A model generated the notes under the pieces. That model was given only the letters and a program-made list of their open reading frames with translations, was not told where the DNA came from and searched no databases. DNA of 64,000 bases, from contig CAWGDH010000019.1 of NCBI GenBank assembly GCA_963821215.1, forward strand, positions 130,858 through 194,857, given 5' to 3'. Both the position numbers and the translations under genes were made by a program. Of this stretch, positions 5,257 to 39,787 are shown piece after piece (within the stretch, counting starts at the first letter, position 1; each line of letters starts with the position of its first letter). Source of the DNA: an uncultured Acidobacteriaceae bacterium. GTDB lineage: Bacteria > Acidobacteriota > Terriglobia > Terriglobales > Acidobacteriaceae.

Positions 5257-6308
5257 CCGCGTATACCGGCGGCGTGATGGTGCCTAGCGCCAGGGCGCGG
5301 GTGCGCCAATACATCAATCCGCTGGGCAAGCTGGGCATTGCGGTGCGCGAATACCCTCTGCCCTGGGGCAACATACTGCCCCAGCAACGCAGCCTGCGCC
5401 CGCTATGGATGGCAGCAACCGCGGCAGCGCGTACCGCGGCTCTTGCCTGCTCCTGGAAGGCCGATGTGACCTGGATCTCGCGCCAGCTCCTCCCCGCCTT
5501 TGCCCCCCTCGAGGCCTTAGCGAAGCGGCCCATGGTCCTCGACGTCGATGACGCGGTTTGGCTCAACACCGGTGGACACCGCGCCCGGGATCTGGCCCGG
5601 GCCAGCGACCTGGTAGTGTGCGGCAACAGTTTTCTGGCCGACCAATTCTCCCGCTGGAATACCAACGTCACCATCATCCCCACGGCGGTGAATACCTCGT
5701 GGTATCGCCCGCGCCGTTTCCGTGTACCCGCGCCCGCACTGGTGCTGGGCTGGACCGGCACCAGCGGCAATTTTCCCTTCCTCTACTCGATTGAGGGAGC
5801 ATTGCTGCGTGTGTTTCAGCACTGCAGCCGGGCGAAGCTGCTCATCGTCGCCGATCGTCCACCCCAATTCAAACGCCTTCCGGAGTCTCGGATCGAGTTT
5901 GAACTCTGGACGCCACAAACCGAGTTAGGCGCCTTCGCGCATATGTCGATCGGGCTGATGCCGCTGGCCGACACCGCCTGGTGCAACGGCAAGTGCAGTT
6001 ACAAAATGCTCTGCTATATGGCGGCGGGGCTGCCGGTGGTGGTCACCGCCGCCGGCATGAATCGCGAAGTACTGGCGATGGGCGAAGTGGGCTTGAGCGC
6101 AAGTTGCGAGCAGCAGTGGGTCGATGCACTTACTGCGCTGCTCAGCGATGCGGACCTGCGCCAGCGTATGGGGGCTGCCGGCCGCGTTGTGGTTGAAGAG
6201 CACTTCAGCCTGCAGCGGCTGGCGCAACAATATGCAGCTGTATTTCAATCCCTGGGCGGAGAGTCGCCGCGGGTATCTGGATCCAGAGTTGTTGTCCAAA
6301 GCCGATGA
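5247..6308 (+). CDS. Glycosyltransferase, GT-B fold (GT4-like)
   Basis: An in-frame GTG at 5247 overlaps the upstream stop. The C-terminal half has the GT1/GT4 pattern (GWTGTSGNFPFL ... LPVVVTAAGMNREVL). The upstream part of the tracked ORF overlaps the Wzy-like gene and looks non-coding. Confidence 0.7.
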   Translation: MRVAAYTGGVMVPSARARVRQYINPLGKLGIAVREYPLPWGNILPQQRSLRPLWMAATAAARTAALACSWKADVTWISRQLLPAFAPLEALAKRPMVLDVDDAVWLNTGGHRARDLARASDLVVCGNSFLADQFSRWNTNVTIIPTAVNTSWYRPRRFRVPAPALVLGWTGTSGNFPFLYSIEGALLRVFQHCSRAKLLIVADRPPQFKRLPESRIEFELWTPQTELGAFAHMSIGLMPLADTAWCNGKCSYKMLCYMAAGLPVVVTAAGMNREVLAMGEVGLSASCEQQWVDALTALLSDADLRQRMGAAGRVVVEEHFSLQRLAQQYAAVFQSLGGESPRVSGSRVVVQSR

Positions 6309-24695: not shown

Positions 24696-24716
24696 AATTC
24701 TGTCCTGACCACAACC

Positions 24717-25004
24717 GAAAGAAACCGCAGGTCCCTCCACTACGCTTCCACGGCTCGCCGGGACAGGTCGCTCCGGTCGGGATGACAATTCTTTTGCAGG
24801 GTCAAGATTTTTCGTTGAAGGCACTTGCGGACACAACAAAATTGTCATCCCGACCGGAGCGTACCCGGATTTCCTACTAAGTGGCACTCATCAACAACCA
24901 CGTATGCGGCTTTCCTTAGGGAAAGCCGCATTCACTCCGCCAACGCCACCAGTCGCAACAGGAGATCCGGGGGAGCGGAGTGGAGGGACCTGCGTTTTTT
25001 TCGG
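24717..25004. repeat. Nested-inverted-repeat element, copy 2
   Basis: Same architecture and core motifs as 18570-18860 (GGTCCCTCCACT...GTCGGGATGACAATTC...GAATTGTCATCCCGAC...AGTGGAGGGACC). It begins right after the MFS stop codon. Confidence 0.85.
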
Positions 25005-25145
25005 TTTGACCGTCCCGCTGTTTGGCACATGGGTAGTTATTCTGGTTTGTCACCAAACTCTGGAGACCAAACTCTAATTCGCATTGCGAAGTGAGCTCCT
25101 AGTGGCGGCCATGTGCTCCTTTAACCACTGGAAGGAGGAAACAGG

Positions 25146-25290
25146 TGAGCACGCCATTTACATGTGGAAGGACTCGCATGCAGAATTTGCCGACTGTCTG
25201 ATCAACGCGCGCAACCGCCGACTAGGGTGTCGCGCCACCGCGACATTCGATCGCAGGGCGCTGAAGCTTCCCGGATTCATAGAAGCTTGA
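25146..25290 (+). pseudogene. vapC 3' remnant (C-terminal ~45 codons of the PIN toxin)
   Basis: It encodes HAIYMWKDSHAEFADCLINARNRRLGCRATATFDRRALKLPGFIEA, nearly identical to the C-terminus of the intact VapC at 35072-35467. vapB and the PIN N-terminus are missing. Confidence 0.75.
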
Positions 25291-25918
25291 CGCACAGCGA
25301 GGCGCTATCGTCTGTCATCTCGCCGCCTGTCCCGCCTTGCCGTGGAGCGTGCCGACTCGCCATGGCGCGTTAAAGAGAAATGAACGACGTTAGCTCGGTT
25401 TGGGGGTTGGCTGTCATTTCGTCTACCGCCTTCCCGGGTTGCCACCAAGCCTTGCCCCCTGGACGGGTGCCCCTCGAGAAGTCAGACTGGATTGGCCTTA
25501 TGAAATGCGCTGGCAATACCAACGCGCTTCATGAGTGTCAATCCAGTCTCTGCCGTTTTTTGAGATGAGAAAGATCGATTGATCCGCCCCTTGGGGCGTG
25601 CCCGGGCAACGGCTCTGGTTGCGGTTTGATTTCAGGAATGCGGTGTTCCCGTCTTGGTTTCCCCTTGAGGTGCCGGCTAAGTCCTTTGTTTTACGAAGAT
25701 GGTCAAATTTTAATTTTTCCCGCCCCCATAAGCTGTTTAGGAGACCGATATTTGCCGCACGATGTGCCGCGGCTCATTCGAGGAGCAGAATCTCAAATCA
25801 TCGGAGTCCTGGTTGGGACGGTATTACAGCTCGGTTTTACCGTCCAGCGTTCTGGGAAAAAAAGATGTGGAAGAAGGGTAGGGGAACTACGGAAATGAAG
25901 AGTTTCGGGGACAACGAC

Positions 25919-26050
25919 CTAGTTTTCGGTGGGGGTCTCATCAATGTGATCGATGACCAGGGCCGGGTAAGAACGTTTGGTCTTTTCAGTTTGAGACCTA
26001 GCTGTCTGTTGACGGCGTCGAAGACGGAGAGGGCGCCATTGGGGTCGGAG
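25919..26050 (-). pseudogene. 3' fragment of a TIGR03435-family gene
   Basis: It encodes ...SDPNGALSVFDAVNRQLGLKLK..., matching the C-terminus of the ORF at 36095-36937. Homology stops at 26050. Confidence 0.7.
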
Positions 26051-26115
26051 GCGTTAGCCCTTTCGGTGTACAGATTCTTGTTCACATGAAAGGAGGATTG
26101 AGCCACAGCTGACGA

Positions 26116-26700
26116 TACGGTGTTGATGCTAGCCAGATCAATTTTCCCAATGGCAACGTAGACTATACCAAGGTTCATGACCAAGTGGTGGCCATCGATC
26201 CCACCAACATGACCGTTACCTTGAATCTGATCAACGGCTTCAGCTTCGGCCGCCCGGTTTGGTACCTATCCATGGATGCCAGCAACACCCTAGCAGCAAC
26301 AATCGAGCACAACACCTATGCACCACTGATGAATATGCTTCTCCTTGGATGACGACAGCTTCGGCAGCCCGATCGAGCGCATATTTATCGCCACCAATGG
26401 CACGGAAGGGTGCGACAATCCTCAGCGTCAAGGGCTGTCAGCTGACCTGGCGGATGGCCACAGGCCGAACAATACTCTAGGCGGGATTCCCACGCTCGCT
26501 CTCGACTATAGTCCCGCATGGAACGCACAGTTGTATACCTGGACCGACGATGCTATTTCTAAGGGCTACCGCCAGCAACTTCGCGAGGAGTTCCAGATTC
26601 TCACCTACGCACAAGACGGTCTAATCACCGGATTTCGTGCTGGAACAGCATTCGGCAGCTCTGGTTTCTCAATCAACTGCCCGAGCCAGGGAAAACGGTG
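26116..26700 (+). pseudogene. Frameshifted remnant of an unidentified gene
   Basis: A protein-like reading (..VVAIDPTNMTVTLNLINGFSFGRPVWYLSMDASNTLAATIEHNTYAPLM) hits a stop at about 26350. It then continues in another frame (DDDSFGSPIERIFIATNGTEGCDNPQRQGL...). There is no start codon or N-terminus. Confidence 0.4.
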
Positions 26701-26851
26701 TTCGAGCAGCGCGAGAACCATTTCGACAAAGCTTTGGGGTTGGGTTTCGTTGTTGTCCATCAAGGCTCCCGCGTGCAAGCGAGCATGCGCCTGAGTTGCG
26801 TCCTTTTTCCAGAACTCGACTCGTCGGGCATCCCGTCCTCCGCCCTGTGGA

Positions 26852-27760
26852 CTACATGACGAGAGCCGATGGATTCTCTGTATTTTCAAGGCTCGGGCAT
26901 AACCAGCTCAACTCCGAGGCGTGAGCAAAGCTCTCGCGGAGTAGTTCGGCCTGCCCTTCGGCTGTTAGCGTGGTTTTTTTAAAGGCTTGCGTCACTGCTT
27001 CTGCTACAGGGGCGCCGGCACGCAACGCCCTCAACAGCAGGAAGGTTTCTCGTGCGATCCGGCGATAGTACACCGAATCCTCGAAGCGATGAACGGCAAG
27101 GTAAACGCGCTGCCGCTTCATTGCTGGGAGTCTCATCCGAGTACACATTCCACGCTGAGTCGCCGCACTGCTTACAATGTCGGTCTCAGGCGTTCCTTTT
27201 TTTACCGCAAGCACGAGAGTGTCCACCGGATAGCTCAGTTCAAGCAGCTGAAGATGGGGTTGCAGGAGAAGCCTTGAGTCTGGCCCGACCGAGCCGGCAT
27301 ATTCAGCCGTAACCGGGTCCAAATGTTTCCCATCAAAGGCTTCGACGTACGCCCACTCAAGCCTCGCAACATCGACCGCGAGACGGTGACGCCTTCCGGT
27401 GAACTCGGGATGCGCATCGAGGAATGCCGGGAGCGTCGAACCGAGATCCCGCAGGGTCCAGGACATGGAAGGGTTCTCGGCGAGGTAAGCCAGGATCAAC
27501 GCGTCGAACCGCTTCGGCCCCAGTAAAGCATTGAGGGTTGGGAAATCCTCGGAAACCGCCCTGATGAGGCGGAACCAGTACTGACGGTTGTAGATCTCCA
27601 GGCGCTCGAAAGAGGAGAGGCGCGGGTTCGGTGCAATGTAGCTCGTCGCGATCTCCTCTGTCGATCCACCATTCTCGGTGGTCTTCTGCATCTCGTAATC
27701 CGCAGTCAATGGCCTACGGACATCTTCGGCCATACGCCGCTGTAATTCGAGCAGGGTCAT
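26852..27760 (-). CDS. DUF2063-family protein (BufC/MbnC-like partner of the MNIO enzyme)
   Basis: 302 aa. Its start overlaps the upstream DUF692 stop by 4 nt. The N-terminal pattern LQRRMAEDVRRPL...RLEIYNRQYWFRL is typical of DUF2063. Confidence 0.8.
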   Translation of the reverse strand: MTLLELQRRMAEDVRRPLTADYEMQKTTENGGSTEEIATSYIAPNPRLSSFERLEIYNRQYWFRLIRAVSEDFPTLNALLGPKRFDALILAYLAENPSMSWTLRDLGSTLPAFLDAHPEFTGRRHRLAVDVARLEWAYVEAFDGKHLDPVTAEYAGSVGPDSRLLLQPHLQLLELSYPVDTLVLAVKKGTPETDIVSSAATQRGMCTRMRLPAMKRQRVYLAVHRFEDSVYYRRIARETFLLLRALRAGAPVAEAVTQAFKKTTLTAEGQAELLRESFAHASELSWLCPSLENTENPSALVM

Positions 27761-28638
27761 AGGTAGGCCTCCTTGGCCAGCGTAAATTCCTGCGGAATAG
27801 GGGATTCTCTCGCGAGAAGAAAGCGGTTGGCCTTGAGCGCCTCGGCATGCACCTCTTCAAAAGAGGGGATATTATCATCCCACTCAAGCAGTGTGGCGGT
27901 TGGACCGCAACGCTCAATGGCGCGCTGGTAGAGCTTCCAGACGGGATCGAGGACCGGGTGATCGTGCGTATCGAGGATGTACTTCTCGAACTTCGAGTGG
28001 CCTGCGATATGGATCTGTGCAACACGTTCCGCAGGGATGCTGTTAACGTACACCATTGGGTCGAAATCGTGATTCTGGGAAGAGACATAGATATTGTTGA
28101 CGTCAAGAAGAATCCCGCAATCGGCCGCATGAACGACCTCACTCAGGAACTCCCACTCGGTCATCTCCGAGTCGTGGTACTCGGCATAGCTGCTGACGTT
28201 CTCCACGGCTACAGGAATCTCAAGGTAATCCTGAACCATGCACACGCGTTCAGCAGTAGTACGGATGGCTTCAAACGTGTAAGGAAGAGGAAGGAGATCA
28301 TGCGTGTAGCGGCCGTCCACGCTGCCCCAGCAAAGATGGTCGGACAGCCAAGGGGTCTTGGTCCGCTTCGTCAGTTCCTTGACCCGCCTTAGATGGTCAC
28401 GGTTCAACGGCTGCGCACTGCCAAAGTACATGGACACGCCATGTTGAACGACTCGATATTGATCGAGAGTCTGGTCAAGAATTCTCAGTGGCCGCCCACC
28501 ATCGACCATGTAGTTCTCCGAGATAATCTCGAACCAATCGACTATCGGTTTCTTTGAGAAGATGTGGTCATAATGCGGCACTCTCAGACCGATGCCGACG
28601 CCATAGTCGGTATATCCATTGAAACGATTGGCTGGCAT
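27757..28638 (-). CDS. DUF692 multinuclear non-heme iron oxidase (MNIO; BufB/MbnB-like)
   Basis: YGVGIGLRVPHYDHIF...VDWFEIISENYM at the N-terminus, with His/Asp/Glu-rich TIM-barrel motifs (HGVSMYFGS, LSDHLCW, VENVSSY, LLDVNNIYVS, IHIAGH). ATG at 28638 with a GGAG SD; a TTG at 28662 is an alternative. Confidence 0.85.
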   Translation of the reverse strand: MPANRFNGYTDYGVGIGLRVPHYDHIFSKKPIVDWFEIISENYMVDGGRPLRILDQTLDQYRVVQHGVSMYFGSAQPLNRDHLRRVKELTKRTKTPWLSDHLCWGSVDGRYTHDLLPLPYTFEAIRTTAERVCMVQDYLEIPVAVENVSSYAEYHDSEMTEWEFLSEVVHAADCGILLDVNNIYVSSQNHDFDPMVYVNSIPAERVAQIHIAGHSKFEKYILDTHDHPVLDPVWKLYQRAIERCGPTATLLEWDDNIPSFEEVHAEALKANRFLLARESPIPQEFTLAKEAYL

Positions 28639-28671
28639 GTATGCTCCGCGGACGATGATCAAGAAGAAGGG

Positions 28672-28701
28672 TAGGAGGTCTGTGAGGAGCCAGACCTCCT
28701 A
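28672..28701 (-). terminator. Perfect 11-bp stem / 8-nt loop hairpin between the precursor and MNIO genes (candidate attenuator or mRNA-stabilising element)
   Basis: TAGGAGGTCTG-TGAGGAGC-CAGACCTCCTA. On the mRNA strand it is followed by a pyrimidine-rich CCCUUCUUCUU tract. Confidence 0.5.
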
Positions 28702-28714
28702 GGCGGGGTTGAGG

Positions 28715-29011
28715 TTAGCTCTTGGGGGGCTTGGAGCCGTCTGTCGCGCAAGCGCCTTGCCCCTTGCAGGAATTCTTCCCCCGATGCGCCTTGTCGCCGC
28801 CGCCCTGGCCTTTGCAATCGTTTTGCCCCTTGCAGGAGTGCTTGGGAAGCTCCTTCTCCGAGGCAACCATCACACCGGCGACTGCCGAGGAGCTTGCGGT
28901 TGCTTGCGATTGGCCGGAAATGGGTTGGGCGTTGAGGCGCGCGGTCGTGCCGCCGAGGAGGCCGGCGAAAGCGGCGGCCAGAGCGAGGTTGCTTACTGTA
29001 GTGGTTTTCAT
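28715..29011 (-). CDS. RiPP precursor candidate: 98-aa Sec-signal peptide with a four-Cys core (bufferin-like)
   Basis: Hand translation: MKTTTVSNLALAAAFAGLLGGTTARLNAQPISGQSQATASSSAVAGVMVASEKELPKHSCKGQNDCKGQGGGDKAHRGKNSCKGQGACATDGSKPPKS. An AAGGAA SD lies upstream. It sits immediately 5' of the DUF692/DUF2063 genes. Confidence 0.7.
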   Translation of the reverse strand: MKTTTVSNLALAAAFAGLLGGTTARLNAQPISGQSQATASSSAVAGVMVASEKELPKHSCKGQNDCKGQGGGDKAHRGKNSCKGQGACATDGSKPPKS

Positions 29012-29129
29012 GAAGAGTTCCTTTTTTCGGTTGGTCCAGGCGGTGTGCCTGGAAGTTGAGTTTGACCCGCTATAGCTGGCCGGAAACTGGTGTCGAGGTT
29101 CTCTTTCCCCGCCGCATGTTTGAGGCTTG

Positions 29130-29144
29130 AACCAACGGTTGGTT
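29130..29144. promoter_or_regulatory. 7-1-7 palindrome AACCAAC-G-GTTGGTT upstream of the precursor gene, next to a GTAACC (-35-like) motif on the minus strand
   Basis: Read directly from the sequence. It lies about 120 nt upstream of the precursor ATG. The 1-nt spacer rules out a hairpin, so an operator is more likely. Confidence 0.25.
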
Positions 29145-29162
29145 ACAGACCGCCCTGTAAAT

Positions 29163-29942
29163 TCAGAGAGGCATCGTGGCGGCGCCAACGATTGCTCCCT
29201 GCAGCGGCTCCTGCGCAAACAGGATTAGGTGATGCCCTGATCCACCGCCAAGTTGAAAGCCATCAGGCAGGGGAACATGAATGGACTCTTCTGCGTCGTC
29301 CTTAACTTTTGCCACGCGCGTCAGCGAACGAGCGACAGACACATGCTGAAGGAGCCTGCCGCTATTTTCTCCGCGTAGAACATTCGATCGGTCGGTGTCA
29401 TCCGTAAGAACCGCGACGATATCGAGAGGCTTCGACTGATGGCCCGTAAATGCAAACCTCACATCCACTCCAGAGTCGGAGGCAGTGGAGGAAATAATAC
29501 GCAGAGCGAGATGGTCTCGCCGAGCATCGTCACGGAGAGCGCGCTCAAGAGCCCCGCGGTTGCTGCCTACGAACTGATCACGTCCATTCACGACCATTTG
29601 TGGCGTGTAGGGCCCTTCGGGGGAAAGCCGTGAGGTGTACACACTCTGCCTGTCCGTAAACACTGGAGCGGAATACGGATCTTTCCAGCCGAGATTGTTC
29701 CAGTACGTTACGTGCTCGCTGATGCCCAAAATCAACTGGCCGGCGCTCGTTTGCTTCAAGTTGATCTCGCGCAGCAGAGCATCGGCCGGAGGGCAGCTTG
29801 AACATCCTTCTGATGTGAAGAGCTCCACGACCGCTACGGAAGCAGGCCTTTCTGGGCCTGCCCCGCCAGGCGCAGCGAAACACGTAACCGCGCTGATCCC
29901 GAGGAGTGTAAACGAAAGAGCAAGTAAGGAACGAAGCTGCAT
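29163..29942 (-). CDS. DUF1223-family secreted thioredoxin-fold protein
   Basis: ATG at 29942 with a GGAGG SD. Signal peptide MQLRSLLALSFTLLGISAVTCFA. Hallmark motif VELFTSEGCSSCPPAD. Confidence 0.75.
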   Translation of the reverse strand: MQLRSLLALSFTLLGISAVTCFAAPGGAGPERPASVAVVELFTSEGCSSCPPADALLREINLKQTSAGQLILGISEHVTYWNNLGWKDPYSAPVFTDRQSVYTSRLSPEGPYTPQMVVNGRDQFVGSNRGALERALRDDARRDHLALRIISSTASDSGVDVRFAFTGHQSKPLDIVAVLTDDTDRSNVLRGENSGRLLQHVSVARSLTRVAKVKDDAEESIHVPLPDGFQLGGGSGHHLILFAQEPLQGAIVGAATMPL

Positions 29943-30108
29943 GGATCTGCCTCCAACTGAACGTTTCTTATCTGACACAGCGACTCTCAGACGGTTACAG
30001 AGGTGATTTTCGAAGATGAGACTGTAACCGAACTGAGCCGTAGGTCTCTAACCATGAGACAAGAGGTCCTCGCGCTGAGGAGCGAGGCGCCATACCAAGG
30101 AAGAAATC

Positions 30109-30639
30109 ATGAGTCAGCTTCTACATGCCTATCGCCGAATCATTTCAGTATTCTCCTCACTGCAGTCTGCCATGCTGCTGGCCGTCAGGCTCTATTGGGG
30201 ATTTCAGTTTGCCCAGACAGGCTGGGGCAAGCTTCACAACCTACCCAGGATCACGGCATTTTTCGCGAGCCTCAATATTCCCTTTCCAGGCTTCAACGCT
30301 CCTTTCATCGCTATGCTGGAGTTCACGGGCGGCATCCTCCTTATGCTCGGATTGTTCTCGCGTCCGATCGCATTTCTTCTCGCCTGCAATATGTTCGCGG
30401 CCTACTGGACAGCCGATCACGAGGCACTCGTCTCGATCTTTTCCGATCCAGGTAAGTTCTACGCTGCCGACCCGTACACGTTCCTGTTTGCCTCGCTCAT
30501 GGTTCTGATCCTTGGTGCGGGTCTATATTCGGTTGATACTCTCGTCGCCAGATATCTAACGCGTCGAAGTAACGCGTGCCTAGGGTGCTGCGTGCCCCAG
30601 ACCGACAAAAGGGTAGGTGCGGAGTTCCTGGCTCGATGA
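30109..30639 (+). CDS. DoxX-family membrane protein
   Basis: LLAVRLYWGFQFAQTGWGKL ... EFTGGILLMLGLFSRP is the typical DoxX helix pattern. Four TM segments. Confidence 0.8.
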   Translation: MSQLLHAYRRIISVFSSLQSAMLLAVRLYWGFQFAQTGWGKLHNLPRITAFFASLNIPFPGFNAPFIAMLEFTGGILLMLGLFSRPIAFLLACNMFAAYWTADHEALVSIFSDPGKFYAADPYTFLFASLMVLILGAGLYSVDTLVARYLTRRSNACLGCCVPQTDKRVGAEFLAR

Positions 30640-30695
30640 GCGAGTCAGTTTTCATCATTTCCGAACTTCCAAAGCGGACGAGAAGGAGAGTAGAG

Positions 30696-31427
30696 ATGGG
30701 CAAGTTAGATGGTAAAGTGGCGGTGATTACCGGAGCAACCTCCGGAATGGCGCTGGCGTCGGCCAAACTGTTTGTCGAAGAGGGTGCACACGTCTTCATC
30801 ACGGGCCGGAGGCAAGACAATCTGGACAAAGCGGTCAAAGCGATCGGACGCGATGTGACCGGAGTGCAGGGCGATTCGGCGAAGTTGGCTGATCTCGATC
30901 GACTCTACGAGACGGTCAGGCGGGAGAAGGGCTATATCGATGTTGTGTTTGCCAGCGCCGGTCATGGCGGCCGCGCGCCGCTGGGGGAGATCACAGAAGA
31001 GCAGTTTGACAGCATCTTTTCCCTGAATACCCGCGGAACAGTCTTCACGGTGCAGAAGGCGCTTCCCATGATGCGGAATGGCGGATCGATCATCATGAAC
31101 GGATCGATAGCTCACCTCAAGGGCATGCCGGGGCTTGGCGTTTATGCGGGAAGCAAGGCGGCTCTGCGGTCATTCGCGCGATCGTGGGCGGTGGAACTCG
31201 CAGAGAGCAGGATTCGCGTGAACGTGCTCAGCCCGGGACCGATCGCTACCAACGCTCTCGCGAACGCCCCTGCAGAAGCGAAGGAGTACTTTCTGTCAGC
31301 CATTCCTCGCAAGGAGTTCGGACGCTCGGAGGAGATCGCAACGACGGCTCTGTTTCTCGCTTCCGACGACTCCAGCTTCGTGAACGGCAGCGAGATCTGT
31401 GTTGATGGCGGATTAGCACAGATCTGA
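30696..31427 (+). CDS. Short-chain dehydrogenase/reductase (SDR)
   Basis: ATG at 30696 after a GAAGGAG SD. LDGKVAVITGATSGMALASAKLF, and the Y-x3-K motif (YAGSKAA). Confidence 0.85.
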   Translation: MGKLDGKVAVITGATSGMALASAKLFVEEGAHVFITGRRQDNLDKAVKAIGRDVTGVQGDSAKLADLDRLYETVRREKGYIDVVFASAGHGGRAPLGEITEEQFDSIFSLNTRGTVFTVQKALPMMRNGGSIIMNGSIAHLKGMPGLGVYAGSKAALRSFARSWAVELAESRIRVNVLSPGPIATNALANAPAEAKEYFLSAIPRKEFGRSEEIATTALFLASDDSSFVNGSEICVDGGLAQI

Positions 31428-31491: not shown

Positions 31492-31755
31492 ATGATCGGG
31501 TTGGGACTTGTAGTTGGCGTTCTGACCTGCACCGCGAGCGGGTTCGGCATCACGGTGACGGCGCTCCTGCTGGCGCTAGCCGGTTACTCTGGGCCGCATG
31601 TCGCCCTATGGCGGTTTTTGGGCGCCTCGCGCCAGTGGTTCGTTCTTATCACGTGTTTCGCTGCATTCATCATCGGCGAACCCGAACCGCGGTGGTCGCT
31701 CATGTCGCGCCTGCGCCGTTGGTTGCAACAATGCCTTGGGGGGACATTAGTGTAA
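31492..31755 (+). CDS. Small hypothetical membrane protein
   Basis: ORF with two hydrophobic segments. No other support. Confidence 0.25.
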   Translation: MIGLGLVVGVLTCTASGFGITVTALLLALAGYSGPHVALWRFLGASRQWFVLITCFAAFIIGEPEPRWSLMSRLRRWLQQCLGGTLV

Positions 31756-31867
31756 CCAAATTCACTTCCGGTTCTCTAACGATTCGAGGCGGGAGTGCCG
31801 TTCCCGGCTCAGCCTTCTGCCAAAGAGACACTCATATCTCGAGGACGGTGAGTACAGCCCGGTAACC

Positions 31868-32347
31868 ATGGAACGGCACTCCTCAACTCGAACCGAAGCC
31901 GAAATGATTGCCGCCATTTTGGCTGGGGATACGCAGCTTTACCACGAATTGATCCATCCCCACGAGCGCTGCGTGTATTTAATGGCCTTGTCTCTTATGA
32001 AGAACGAGGCGGATGCGGAGGATGTCGCACAGGAGGCATTCCTGAAGGCCTTTCGTAACCTATCCACATTTAGGGCGGAATCCAAGTTCGGCACCTGGCT
32101 CATCAGCATTACACTCAATGAGGCGAGAAGCCGACTTCGGCGACAGAGGATCGTTCGCATGGAATCGCTTGACGATCCTCCCGATGGCGGAGGAGTTGTG
32201 TCTCCGGCTTTGCTCCGGGACTGGCGCGAAATTCCTTCGGAAGTTGTGGAGCGGCAGGAGATTCGTCAGATGCTTCGTGCCAGTTGTAACCTTTTCTCTT
32301 TCCCTCAATCATATGAGGGCTTTCGCTCAATCAAGCCGATGCTCTGA
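31868..32347 (+). pseudogene. ECF (group IV) sigma-70 factor, truncated within region 4
   Basis: Region 2 is intact (EDVAQEAFLKAFRNLSTFR...FGTWLISITLNEARSRLRRQ). The ORF stops about 29 aa after the start of region 4 (EIRQMLRA...FPQSYEGF), so the 4.2 HTH is absent. Confidence 0.55.
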
Positions 32348-32737: not shown

Positions 32738-32950
32738 GTCGTTTGGATGATCACCACAGCGCATCAGATCGCGCCCCGTCTTCAAGATCATCGGAGTGAT
32801 GAAACAGAATTCATGCACGAGCCTGTAACCTTTCCTCCCGTGGCCTCTCGAATAGCTGCGCACAAAGCGGATTGTGCTCCAGCGCTGCCTTCGCCGGCAG
32901 CGTCTGGATCTTTTTTGAGCGCAAATCCTCACCCTTCCAAGGAGTAGCAA

Positions 32951-34081
32951 ATGTTGAAAGCAATTCGTGGCCTGTTGACCATCGCGCTCAGCGTTGGAGC
33001 AATTACCTCAACCATGTATGCCGCTGAGAACGTCGCCGGTTCCTCTTCAACCGTCTTCGTCATGACGAATGACACTGTCAAAAACGAGGTGCTCGCCTAT
33101 CAGCGTCAACGGGATAATAGTTTCGCTTTGAGGGGGAGCTTTGCAACTGGTGGCCGCGGGAGCGGAGGTACCACTGATCCATTGCAGTCGCAAGGTTCAC
33201 TCACTCTCAGCGGTAATCACAACCTGCTGTTCGCTGTCAACGCAGGCAGCGGCACCATCTCCAGCTTCCATCTCCTCGGCGGTCTGCCCATCCTCGTCGA
33301 TCAGGAGACCACTGGCGGCGCCTTCCCCGTCGCGGTCGCAGAACACAACGGCACAGTCTACGTCCTCAATGCGGGCGGAAATGGAGCCATCGTAGCCTTC
33401 CGCGCCGATGGGCTCGGTCACCTCTCCCAGATTTCCAACTCCACCGCGCTTCTCACTGCCACGAACTCTGGCGGCTCTTCCATCTCCGTTAGCCCGAACG
33501 GCCGGACACTCGTCGTCATCGAAAAGGCTCCCGAAAACATCGACATATTTCCCATCAACCCAGACGGAACCCTTGGGACAGTGGTCACCACTCACAGCGT
33601 AACCGCCGGTATCTTTGCTACCGTCTTCACACCGGGTGGCCAACTGATCGTCTCTGAAGACCAGCCTAACGGAACGGACGTTTCCAGCATCTCCTCCTAC
33701 ACCATCAACGCCAACGGCACCATTACCGCGATCAGCCAGAGCATTCCTTCTTTTGGTGACGGTAACTGCTGGAACGCCATCACTCCGAATGGCAAGTTCG
33801 TCTACGCTGACAACTCCGCCACTTCCACGATCGCTGGCTTTTCTGTCGGCTCCAACGGTGCCCTCACTCCGATCGGCGGAACGATTGTCGCTTCCTACCC
33901 CGCAGCCACTATTAATCTCGATATGGTCGTCAGCGGCGACGGCAATTACCTCTACACGCTCAACTCCGGCACAGGTTCTGTCGGCATCTACAGCATCAAT
34001 TCCGATGGCACCCTCAGCAACCCAGGTGACATCGAAGGCTTACCAAAGACCGTAGGCTTCAACGGTATCGCTGCACTGTGA
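32951..34081 (+). CDS. Secreted beta-propeller protein (lactonase / 3-carboxymuconate cyclase-like)
   Basis: Signal peptide, then repeated blades of about 45 aa (..G.G.ISSF.., ..NGAIVAFR.., ..IDIFPINPDGTL.., ..GSVGIYSINSDGTL..). Confidence 0.65.
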   Translation: MLKAIRGLLTIALSVGAITSTMYAAENVAGSSSTVFVMTNDTVKNEVLAYQRQRDNSFALRGSFATGGRGSGGTTDPLQSQGSLTLSGNHNLLFAVNAGSGTISSFHLLGGLPILVDQETTGGAFPVAVAEHNGTVYVLNAGGNGAIVAFRADGLGHLSQISNSTALLTATNSGGSSISVSPNGRTLVVIEKAPENIDIFPINPDGTLGTVVTTHSVTAGIFATVFTPGGQLIVSEDQPNGTDVSSISSYTINANGTITAISQSIPSFGDGNCWNAITPNGKFVYADNSATSTIAGFSVGSNGALTPIGGTIVASYPAATINLDMVVSGDGNYLYTLNSGTGSVGIYSINSDGTLSNPGDIEGLPKTVGFNGIAAL

Positions 34082-39712: not shown

Positions 39713-39787
39713 TGGAGGCGCGGGATGGAATTGAACCATCAAATAAGGCTTTGCAGACCCTTCCCTTTTCGTTTTGGGTTCCGCGCC
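39713..39787 (-). tRNA. tRNA-Cys (anticodon GCA), CCA-encoded, with a non-canonical D-arm
   Basis: Hand-folded cloverleaf. Acceptor GGCGCGG/CCGCGCC, discriminator U73 + CCA, anticodon loop CUGCAAA, T-arm GAUGG-UUCAAUU-CCAUC. D-arm is CCC(A)-AAACGAAA-(A)GGG, with A8 and no G19. Confidence 0.7.

Follow-up and report, generated by a model that had tools for sequence, protein, structure and literature searches.

A four-cysteine variant of the Buf2-type bufferin operon in an uncultured Acidobacteriaceae bacterium

Bufferins, also called captophorins, are the largest group of peptides made by oxidative enzymes that depend on multinuclear non-haem iron (MNIOs) and a widespread means of copper defence; work on them has centred on Pseudomonadota. 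Here we describe a bufferin-type operon, encoding a peptide of the kind made by ribosomes and modified after translation (RiPP), in an uncultured Acidobacteriaceae bacterium (GenBank assembly GCA_963821215.1, contig CAWGDH010000019.1, positions 130,858 to 194,857 of the forward strand). This stretch of 64,000 nucleotides is referred to as the window, and all positions are counted from its first letter. Published surveys count acidobacterial members as Buf2; the family that they describe has precursors with 6 or 12 Cys and a core of precursor, MNIO, DUF2063 and DoxX genes (PMC12452194). Caulobacter vibrioides bufferin 2 (BufA2B2C2, CCNA_02999-03001) shows the thiooxazole shift of -4 Da on its central Cys; its first and last Cys (CysI and CysVI) are left unmodified, and a disulfide between them has been proposed (PMC11626156). 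Both buf1 and buf2 of Caulobacter are controlled by sigma-F (PMC11626156).

The locus in the window resembles Caulobacter bufferin 2 in its bufA-bufB-bufC order, a precursor with C-K-G cysteines and a Sec signal (putative here), a BufB-type MNIO with the Asp that marks "Cys-Lys" enzymes, a DUF2063 partner, the lack of a downstream DoxX gene and, judging by motif, control by an extracytoplasmic function (ECF) sigma factor whose -35 element is GTAACC. Unlike Caulobacter bufferin 2, it encodes four Cys instead of six, its precursor falls below the NCBIfam BufA2 cut-off, its DoxX gene is found upstream in divergent orientation and shares an operon with the sigma gene, bufA is preceded by a DUF1223 gene, and its host belongs to the Acidobacteriaceae; the anti-sigma factor of acidobacterial sister loci is a ZAS-like zf-HC2 protein and not the membrane protein NrsF/DUF1109. 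Caulobacter bufferin 1 (BufA1, DUF2282) also has four Cys, DoxX and an ECF sigma factor, and would share with the peptide described here two central thiooxazoles and an outer disulfide, but the scaffold is another one, and the likeness concerns Cys count and predicted chemistry and not homology. The oxazolin/fontiphorin/gonophorin systems (EGKCG "Lys-Cys" captophorins; HvfABC, FonABC) likewise combine an MNIO and a DUF2063 protein with an exported peptide, a link to copper and 5-thiooxazoles (predicted here); their motif is K-C-G rather than C-K-G, and their MNIOs have Phe where the enzyme described here has Asp. Methanobactin MbnABC shares the MNIO fold, the iron ligands and the modification of Cys into a copper chelator (again predicted here), but its partner MbnC is not a DUF2063 protein, its product is an oxazolone-thioamide, and its precursor starts with a leader, not with a Sec signal. 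Taken together, these comparisons and the evidence below make it likely that the locus is a bufferin/captophorin operon of the Buf2 ("Cys-Lys") type, with the product and the role in copper defence proposed here.

A preliminary description, made from the sequence alone, had reported three co-directional genes on the minus strand with a 76-nt gap and a 4-nt overlap. The open reading frame (ORF) coordinates agree with this layout: 76 nt separate the bufA stop codon from the bufB ATG, and bufC overlaps bufB by 4 nt (27757-27760, ATGA), an arrangement by which bufC is translationally coupled to bufB. Profile searches bore out its assignment to a bufferin-type MNIO/DUF2063 RiPP operon. BufB scored 349.4 bits on NF050167 ("MNIO family bufferin maturase", cut-off 310) and 358 bits on PF05114, and stayed below the cut-offs of the NCBIfam models for HvfB (NF003818, 257.7 bits vs 360), MbnB (TIGR04159, 40.3 bits vs 325), ApyH and ChrH. 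Conservation of the iron ligands had been proposed as a check on this assignment. Alignment of BufB with the solved MNIOs 3BWW and 8HCI and with MbnB (7FC0/7DZ9) showed that all nine metal-ligand positions are kept (H66, H101, E146, D179, N182, H210, D223, H225 and E252, numbered from the ATG); the roles given to these ligands rely on published work on MbnB and FonB. The LLEWDDN segment of BufB aligns with LLERDFN of 3BWW, D254 being the Asp of the ERDF motif, which would put D254 at the proposed catalytic-base site. Residue D255 occupies the FonB-Phe250 site, where 3BWW has F. MNIOs acting on "Cys-Lys" substrates have Asp at the position where "Lys-Cys" enzymes have Phe (PMC13097082), and D255 therefore fits the three C-K-G motifs of the precursor. 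BufC matched PF09836 (DUF2063) with 62.8 bits (gathering score 27.2), showed a weak HvfC match, and was collinear with the BufC proteins of 66 related loci. A clade-specific insertion in the BufC proteins of the four-Cys clade was considered and ruled out, save that BufC of the closest relatives is extended by a short stretch at its C-terminus.

In the precursor BufA, a linker rich in Ser and Ala joins a Sec-type N-terminus to a Lys/Gly-rich core with four Cys; the protein ends in ...KHSCKGQNDCKGQGGGDKAHRGKNSCKGQGACATDGSKPPKS. Its N-terminus (Lys2, a basic n-region, hydrophobic residues 9-21, then ARLNA/QP) is kept across the family and, as judged by inspection, forms a putative Sec-type signal peptide. 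Counting confirmed the Cys spacing given in the preliminary description, C-x5-C and C-x5-C separated by 15 residues (5-15-5). A Pfam search returned no DUF2282 match at E <= 1, in line with the earlier remark that the precursor is unlike DUF2282, and the EGKCG motif is not present. The suggestion that the locus might represent an uncharacterised bufferin subfamily did not hold: the precursor is homologous to the described Buf2 peptides (BUF_6/12Cys). Homology to six-Cys members extended over the signal peptide and the core, with phmmer E-values down to 1e-29 (alignments A2 and A3). In alignment A2, BufA matched the six-Cys scaffold KHxCKGxNxCKGxGGCKxxDNGCKGKNSCKGKGGCATDGSKPP over its full length except for the CysIII/CysIV segment, which is replaced by GGG-DKAHR-G. 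Because the scaffold is the same minus CysIII and CysIV, we regard the precursor as a Cys-reduced Buf2 variant and not as a subfamily of its own, although BUF_6/12Cys is defined by six or twelve conserved Cys (canonical spacing 5-5-6-5-5) and this peptide has four. The core is made of two degenerate C-x5-C-x5-C repeats, the first without its last Cys and the second without its first, so the "two-unit" wording of the preliminary description was accurate. Across 118 aligned family members, K57, H58, C60, C66, C82 and C88 were invariant or nearly so; C60, C66 and C82 each lie within C-K-G, and C88 precedes A-T.

Homologues of the precursor were abundant. A database of 5.8 billion proteins held 1,281, all unnamed or "hypothetical", and those with a named source came from Acidobacteriaceae; an exhaustive phmmer search of 50%-identity representatives gave 622 matches. 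Among the best 150 representatives, 93 had the canonical six-Cys spacing 5-5-6-5-5. The spacings 5-15-5, 5-13-5, 5-10-5 and 5-5-8-5 were found in 10, 8, 6 and 3 of these representatives, respectively, and several others were 12-Cys duplications. A scan of GTDB representative genomes yielded 80 loci, which were annotated by BLAST with the window proteins; all were from Acidobacteriota, including cultured Granulicella, Bryocella and Tunturiibacter. The preliminary description had asked whether precursor homologues adjoin MNIO genes in other genomes: this was the case at 78 of the 80 loci, in the same bufA-bufB-bufC order as in the window.

Neighbour-joining trees of BufB and BufC grouped the Acidobacteriaceae four-Cys loci that have DoxX upstream into a single clade, which is nested within the six-Cys loci. 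Further four-Cys lineages (the Bryobacterales GGGSKKEFGKN type, the L043/L065 pair and the 5-10-5 type) were found elsewhere in the trees and had DoxX downstream. The central Cys pair of Buf2 peptides therefore appears to have been lost several times. CysI and CysVI are the two Cys retained in every independent four-Cys lineage. A modular core is supported by a third repeat unit in the relative P0063 and by a Cys regained at position IV in L011. Some relatives carried frameshifted precursor C-termini or fragmented bufB/bufC genes (P0048, P0067; L001, L006, L015, L048); since most of these come from long-read metagenome assemblies, they may reflect assembly errors rather than real decay. A separate arrangement was seen in L012 (475-1684, minus strand), where an orphan DUF1223 gene lacking the N-terminal part with the CxxC is followed by a second four-Cys bufA (94 aa). 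This pair has no adjoining MNIO gene and lies 5 kb from a complete bufABC cluster, and the same contig carries cluster L061.

We propose that a complex of BufB, as the multi-iron MNIO, and BufC, as its DUF2063 partner, would bind the 98-residue precursor in the cytoplasm and, using O2, would turn selected Cys that precede Lys-Gly into 5-thiooxazoles. The peptide would then be exported by the Sec route with removal of its signal peptide, and the mature form of ~70 residues would chelate periplasmic copper and shield the cell from copper stress. Mapped by order onto Caulobacter Buf2, the peptide would keep the two Cys of the disulfide, and of the four sites of modification it would keep two. CysII (C66) and CysV (C82) would thus most likely be thiooxazoles in the product, with CysI (C60) and CysVI (C88) joined by a disulfide. 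This predicted inventory would be that of bufferin 1, built on a Buf2 scaffold.

Promoter-like motifs of ECF type were found before four genes of the locus (Table 1). The string CTGTAACC occurred five times in the window, vs 0.72 expected. The full motif TGTAAC-N17-19-TC[ACT][AG]A[CT] occurred four times, vs 0.08 expected and a maximum of 2 in 300 simulations, and all four copies lie at this locus. Upstream of DoxX, TGTAAC-N18-TCTAAC was common to all clade members; of 42 four-Cys loci, 30 had a looser form of it at 70-200 nt upstream of bufA, vs 7 of 38 six-Cys loci. The -35 element of the motif matches the Caulobacter sigma-F site GTAACC-N16-CGAA (PMC3511200). These motifs suggest that an ECF sigma factor acting on TGTAAC-N18-TCTAAC-type promoters probably drives expression of the locus. 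An AACGTCC sequence beside the leader hairpin of bufA was considered as a -10 element and dropped once TGTAAC-N18-TCTAAC had been found further upstream. Outside the operon, CTGTAACC together with a CGAA-like -10 was present at 32823-32830 (plus strand), before a gene for a seven-bladed beta-propeller lactonase-like protein (32951-34081), and at the sister locus L002 the same motif lies between an ABM-like gene and the lactonase gene. The lactonase-like and ABM-like genes may thus also belong to this sigma regulon.

The sigma gene of the window is truncated: its alignment to the 197-aa L002 sigma factor, which has both region 2 and region 4, covers residues 1-128 only. At L002, the sigma gene is followed by a zf-HC2 anti-sigma gene and a TauE gene, both of which are absent from the sigma region of the window. 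The L002 anti-sigma factor (5559-5804, minus strand) is an 81-aa zf-HC2 protein with HLEHCEIC, a ZAS-type redox- or metal-sensing motif (HxxxCxxC). Compared with its counterpart at L007, the closest reference locus, the window sigma gene had a synonymous divergence (dS) of ~2.2, vs 0.3-0.6 for neighbouring genes, and it therefore probably derives from a paralogous copy by rearrangement.

The preliminary description had placed a DoxX gene 1.1 kb upstream of bufA, beyond a DUF1223 gene, and had treated its absence downstream of bufC as a departure from the usual order. The position was correct, DoxX being divergent from DUF1223 and 1.1 kb from the bufA start. A missing downstream DoxX is not unusual, because the Caulobacter buf2 operon also lacks bufD (PMC11626156). 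Among 38 six-Cys loci, 35 had the canonical bufA-bufB-bufC-DoxX order and none had DUF1223 within 6 kb. In the 45 four-Cys and derived loci, DoxX was upstream and divergent in 31, usually followed by an ECF sigma gene, and DUF1223 stood directly before bufA in 12 and within 6 kb in 5 more. When the 80 closest DUF1223 homologues on metagenome contigs were inspected, bufA followed in 42 of the 64 that could be assessed; the remaining close homologues were paralogues paired divergently with an SDR or a sigma gene. TGTAAC was found upstream of 67 of 70 close DUF1223 homologues, whether or not bufA followed, which places DUF1223 and the bufferin genes in one putative regulon. The DUF1223 family has a thioredoxin fold (PDB 2AXO; PMC3091736). 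In the literature searched we met no report that connects DUF1223 with MNIO systems, and neither DUF1223 nor the core motif seen here appears in the supplementary files of the MNIO landscape paper. From the conserved gene order and shared motifs, the putatively secreted DUF1223 CxxC protein and DoxX are probably co-regulated accessory proteins.

Other parts of the neighbourhood have been rearranged. In other soil contigs (L117, L128, L151), SDR genes 88-93% identical to the one in the window neighbour DUF1223 paralogues in divergent orientation and have the same promoter pair. The C-terminus of DoxX is replaced after about residue 148, and the altered stretch, with the SDR gene, spans 30550-31427 (plus strand). 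The SDR insertion, the swapped DoxX C-terminus and the divergence of the sigma gene point to recombination between two regulon loci. The bufferin genes of the window are intact. Ratios of nonsynonymous to synonymous divergence (dN/dS) against L007 were 0.07 for bufA, 0.13 for bufB, 0.18 for bufC, 0.23 for DUF1223 and 0.19 for DoxX, and these five genes are therefore under purifying selection.

Table 1. Coordinates of the operon, its promoter-like sites, RNA hairpins and neighbouring genes in the window
Feature	Position	Strand	Details
bufA	28715..29011	-	98 aa from internal ATG of a longer TTG-initiated ORF
Core peptide of BufA, residues 57-98	28718..28843	-	KH-SC(I)KGQNDC(II)KGQGGG-DKAHR-GKNSC(V)KGQGAC(VI)ATDGSKPPKS
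bufB, MNIO (DUF692)	27757..28638	-	293 aa from ATG at 28638; whole ORF 27757-28662
bufC, DUF2063 partner (PME1/RRE-type)	26852..27760	-	302 aa
GC-rich stem-loop just after the bufA stop, then C/T-rich tract	28672..28701	-	terminator-like match, 11 pairs
Short leader hairpin before the AACC...GAAAGG ribosome-binding region of bufA	29035..29053	-	single-sequence folds
ECF-type promoter-like site before bufA (~100 nt)	29118..29147	-	TGTAAC-N18-TCAAAC
DUF1223 thioredoxin-fold protein	29163..29942	-	259 aa from ATG; PF06764 187 bits; putative signal peptide, CSSC motif
ECF-type promoter-like site before DUF1223	29970..29999	-	TGTAAC-N18-TCAGAT
ECF-type promoter-like site before DoxX, divergent from the DUF1223 site	30023..30052	+	TGTAAC-N18-TCTAAC
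DoxX (BufD-like) membrane protein	30109..30639	+	PF07681 65.6 bits; sub-threshold NF050144 HvfX match
SDR oxidoreductase	30696..31427	+	PF13561 203 bits; between DoxX and sigma gene in this genome only
ECF-type promoter-like site before sigma gene	31751..31780	+	TGTAAC-N18-TCTAAC
Truncated ECF sigma factor gene	31868..32347	+	Pfam: Sigma70_r2 only; region 4 missing

Several observations weigh against the assignment to Buf2 or against the product and role proposed for it. On NF050166, the NCBIfam BufA2 model, BufA scored 27.8 bits, below the cut-off of 60; as clearly six-Cys acidobacterial relatives from soil also fell below it, at 34-47 bits, this model is narrow. The acidobacterial members are known from sequence alone, and the modified and unmodified Cys of Caulobacter Buf2 were transferred to the window peptide by order only. 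AlphaFold2, run with the 118-sequence alignment, gave no confident fold of the precursor (predicted local distance difference test, pLDDT, 50.7; predicted template modelling score, pTM, 0.14), which leaves the CysI-CysVI disulfide without structural support. CysI also precedes Lys-Gly and is thus a possible third modification site. With the same enzyme and chemistry, C60, C66 and C82 would then all become thiooxazoles and C88 would stay a free thiol or metal ligand, with no structural disulfide. Such a product would be consistent with the C-K-G context of these three Cys and the A-T after C88, and with the Cys-Lys contact to a BufB Asp, proposed as the determinant of selectivity (PMC13097082), since this Asp is present here. 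However, the first and last Cys of Caulobacter Buf2 are unmodified (PMC11626156), and retention of CysI and CysVI in every independent four-Cys lineage is what is expected of a structural pair, so that we consider three thiooxazoles unlikely. It is also improbable that the MNIO installs another kind of modification, such as a methanobactin-type oxazolone-thioamide or a carbon excision, and here the odds are far lower still: although MNIO reactions are diverse and BufB has a weak MbnB match of 40 bits, it passed the bufferin maturase equivalog cut-off and failed those of MbnB, ApyH, ChrH and HvfB, and related products once called oxazolone-thioamides have been revised to 5-thiooxazoles (PMC13097082).

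With a truncated sigma factor and no anti-sigma gene, regulation in this genome must use a paralogue or may be lost. The operon could thus be a decaying regulatory orphan whose peptide is made poorly or not at all, a view that would also fit the absent TauE gene, the replaced DoxX C-terminus, the stretch of gene fragments downstream of bufC (about 25000-26850) and degraded copies elsewhere, for example L001. The intact reading frames of bufA, bufB, bufC, DUF1223 and DoxX, their dN/dS of 0.07-0.23 and the four intact promoter motifs argue for a working operon, and in related genomes there are several paralogous clusters, with sigma genes, from which action in trans is conceivable (L012 and L061 share a contig); we therefore give decay only a small chance. 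A similarly small chance is left for a peptide and regulon that respond mainly to a cue other than copper, either another thiophilic metal or thiol/oxidative stress. This would agree with the small ZAS-type zf-HC2 anti-sigma factor with HxxxCxxC at sister loci, in place of Caulobacter NrsF, with a regulon that includes a thioredoxin-fold CxxC protein, an SDR and ABM-like and lactonase-like proteins, with the response of Caulobacter sigma-F to chromium and cadmium as well (PMC3511200), and with MerC-bufferin fusions that point to mercury (PMC12452194). Yet all characterised bufferins/captophorins bind copper and protect against it (PMC11626156, PMC13097082), and no sequence feature argues for another metal. 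A Buf2-type operon whose peptide would carry two thiooxazoles and one disulfide and act on copper remains the reading that we favour.

The hairpin that follows the bufA stop codon is conserved in position. RNAalifold on 22 loci predicted 12 pairs, 11 of the 12 with compensatory changes, and the hairpin is probably a partial terminator/attenuator or an mRNA stabiliser that would raise the level of precursor over enzyme mRNA. For the leader hairpin, single-sequence folds anchored on the ribosome-binding region of 28 loci gave a fixed position with differing stem sequences, which is weak evidence for a conserved element; no structure emerged when the bufA 5' leader was folded as a MAFFT/RNAalifold consensus, the two sub-clades being misaligned. 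An Rfam scan of the locus returned no known RNA family. Downstream of bufC, positions 25000-26850 hold no intact gene, only fragments, among which were a weak DUF7482-like piece (26185-26352) and a 149-aa ORF (26345-26794); a gene has probably decayed here. Between a major facilitator superfamily transporter gene and the gene-poor stretch lies a nested palindromic element of ~300 bp (24712-25008). Its 48-nt arms are 79% complementary and its inner 28-nt arms 93%, so that it looks like a miniature inverted-repeat transposable element (MITE) or a repetitive extragenic palindromic (REP) element. Elsewhere, Rfam matched a tRNA at 39716-39787 (minus strand; 51.3 bits, gathering score 29), and ARAGORN reported no tRNA anywhere in the window.

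The four-Cys Buf2 operon is a real and well-supported variant within a known kind of system, and the gain is incremental because the enzyme chemistry and the general biology were already known. The literature searched contains no description of the four-Cys form itself, of its repeated appearance in distinct lineages, of the clade-wide shift of DoxX to a divergent sigma operon, of the association with DUF1223 or of the ZAS-type anti-sigma factor. A broader proposal joins these features, and we put it forward tentatively, as possible but rather doubtful when all its parts are taken jointly. Repeated loss of the central Cys pair in Buf2 peptides would have produced a minimal copper site of two thiooxazoles and one disulfide that converges on the bufferin 1 design. 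DUF1223 would be a periplasmic partner dedicated to bufferins and as yet unrecognised. It would belong to an acidobacterial regulon governed by a sigma factor recognising a sigma-F-like -35 element and by a cytoplasmic ZAS-type anti-sigma factor, and this regulon would also hold DoxX, SDR, ABM-like and lactonase-like proteins. The DUF1223 protein may form or reduce the bufferin disulfide, or may hand over copper.

Abundant soil Acidobacteriaceae carry this streamlined four-Cys Buf2, which public annotation lists as a "hypothetical protein". In this family, modifiable Cys on one scaffold appear to have been trimmed more than once, and the accessory genes have been rearranged about a common promoter-like motif of ECF type. 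These lineages would serve as a natural experiment in the number of thiooxazoles required for a copper site, and the association described here may give a first clue to the function of DUF1223, a family with a thioredoxin fold and no known role.

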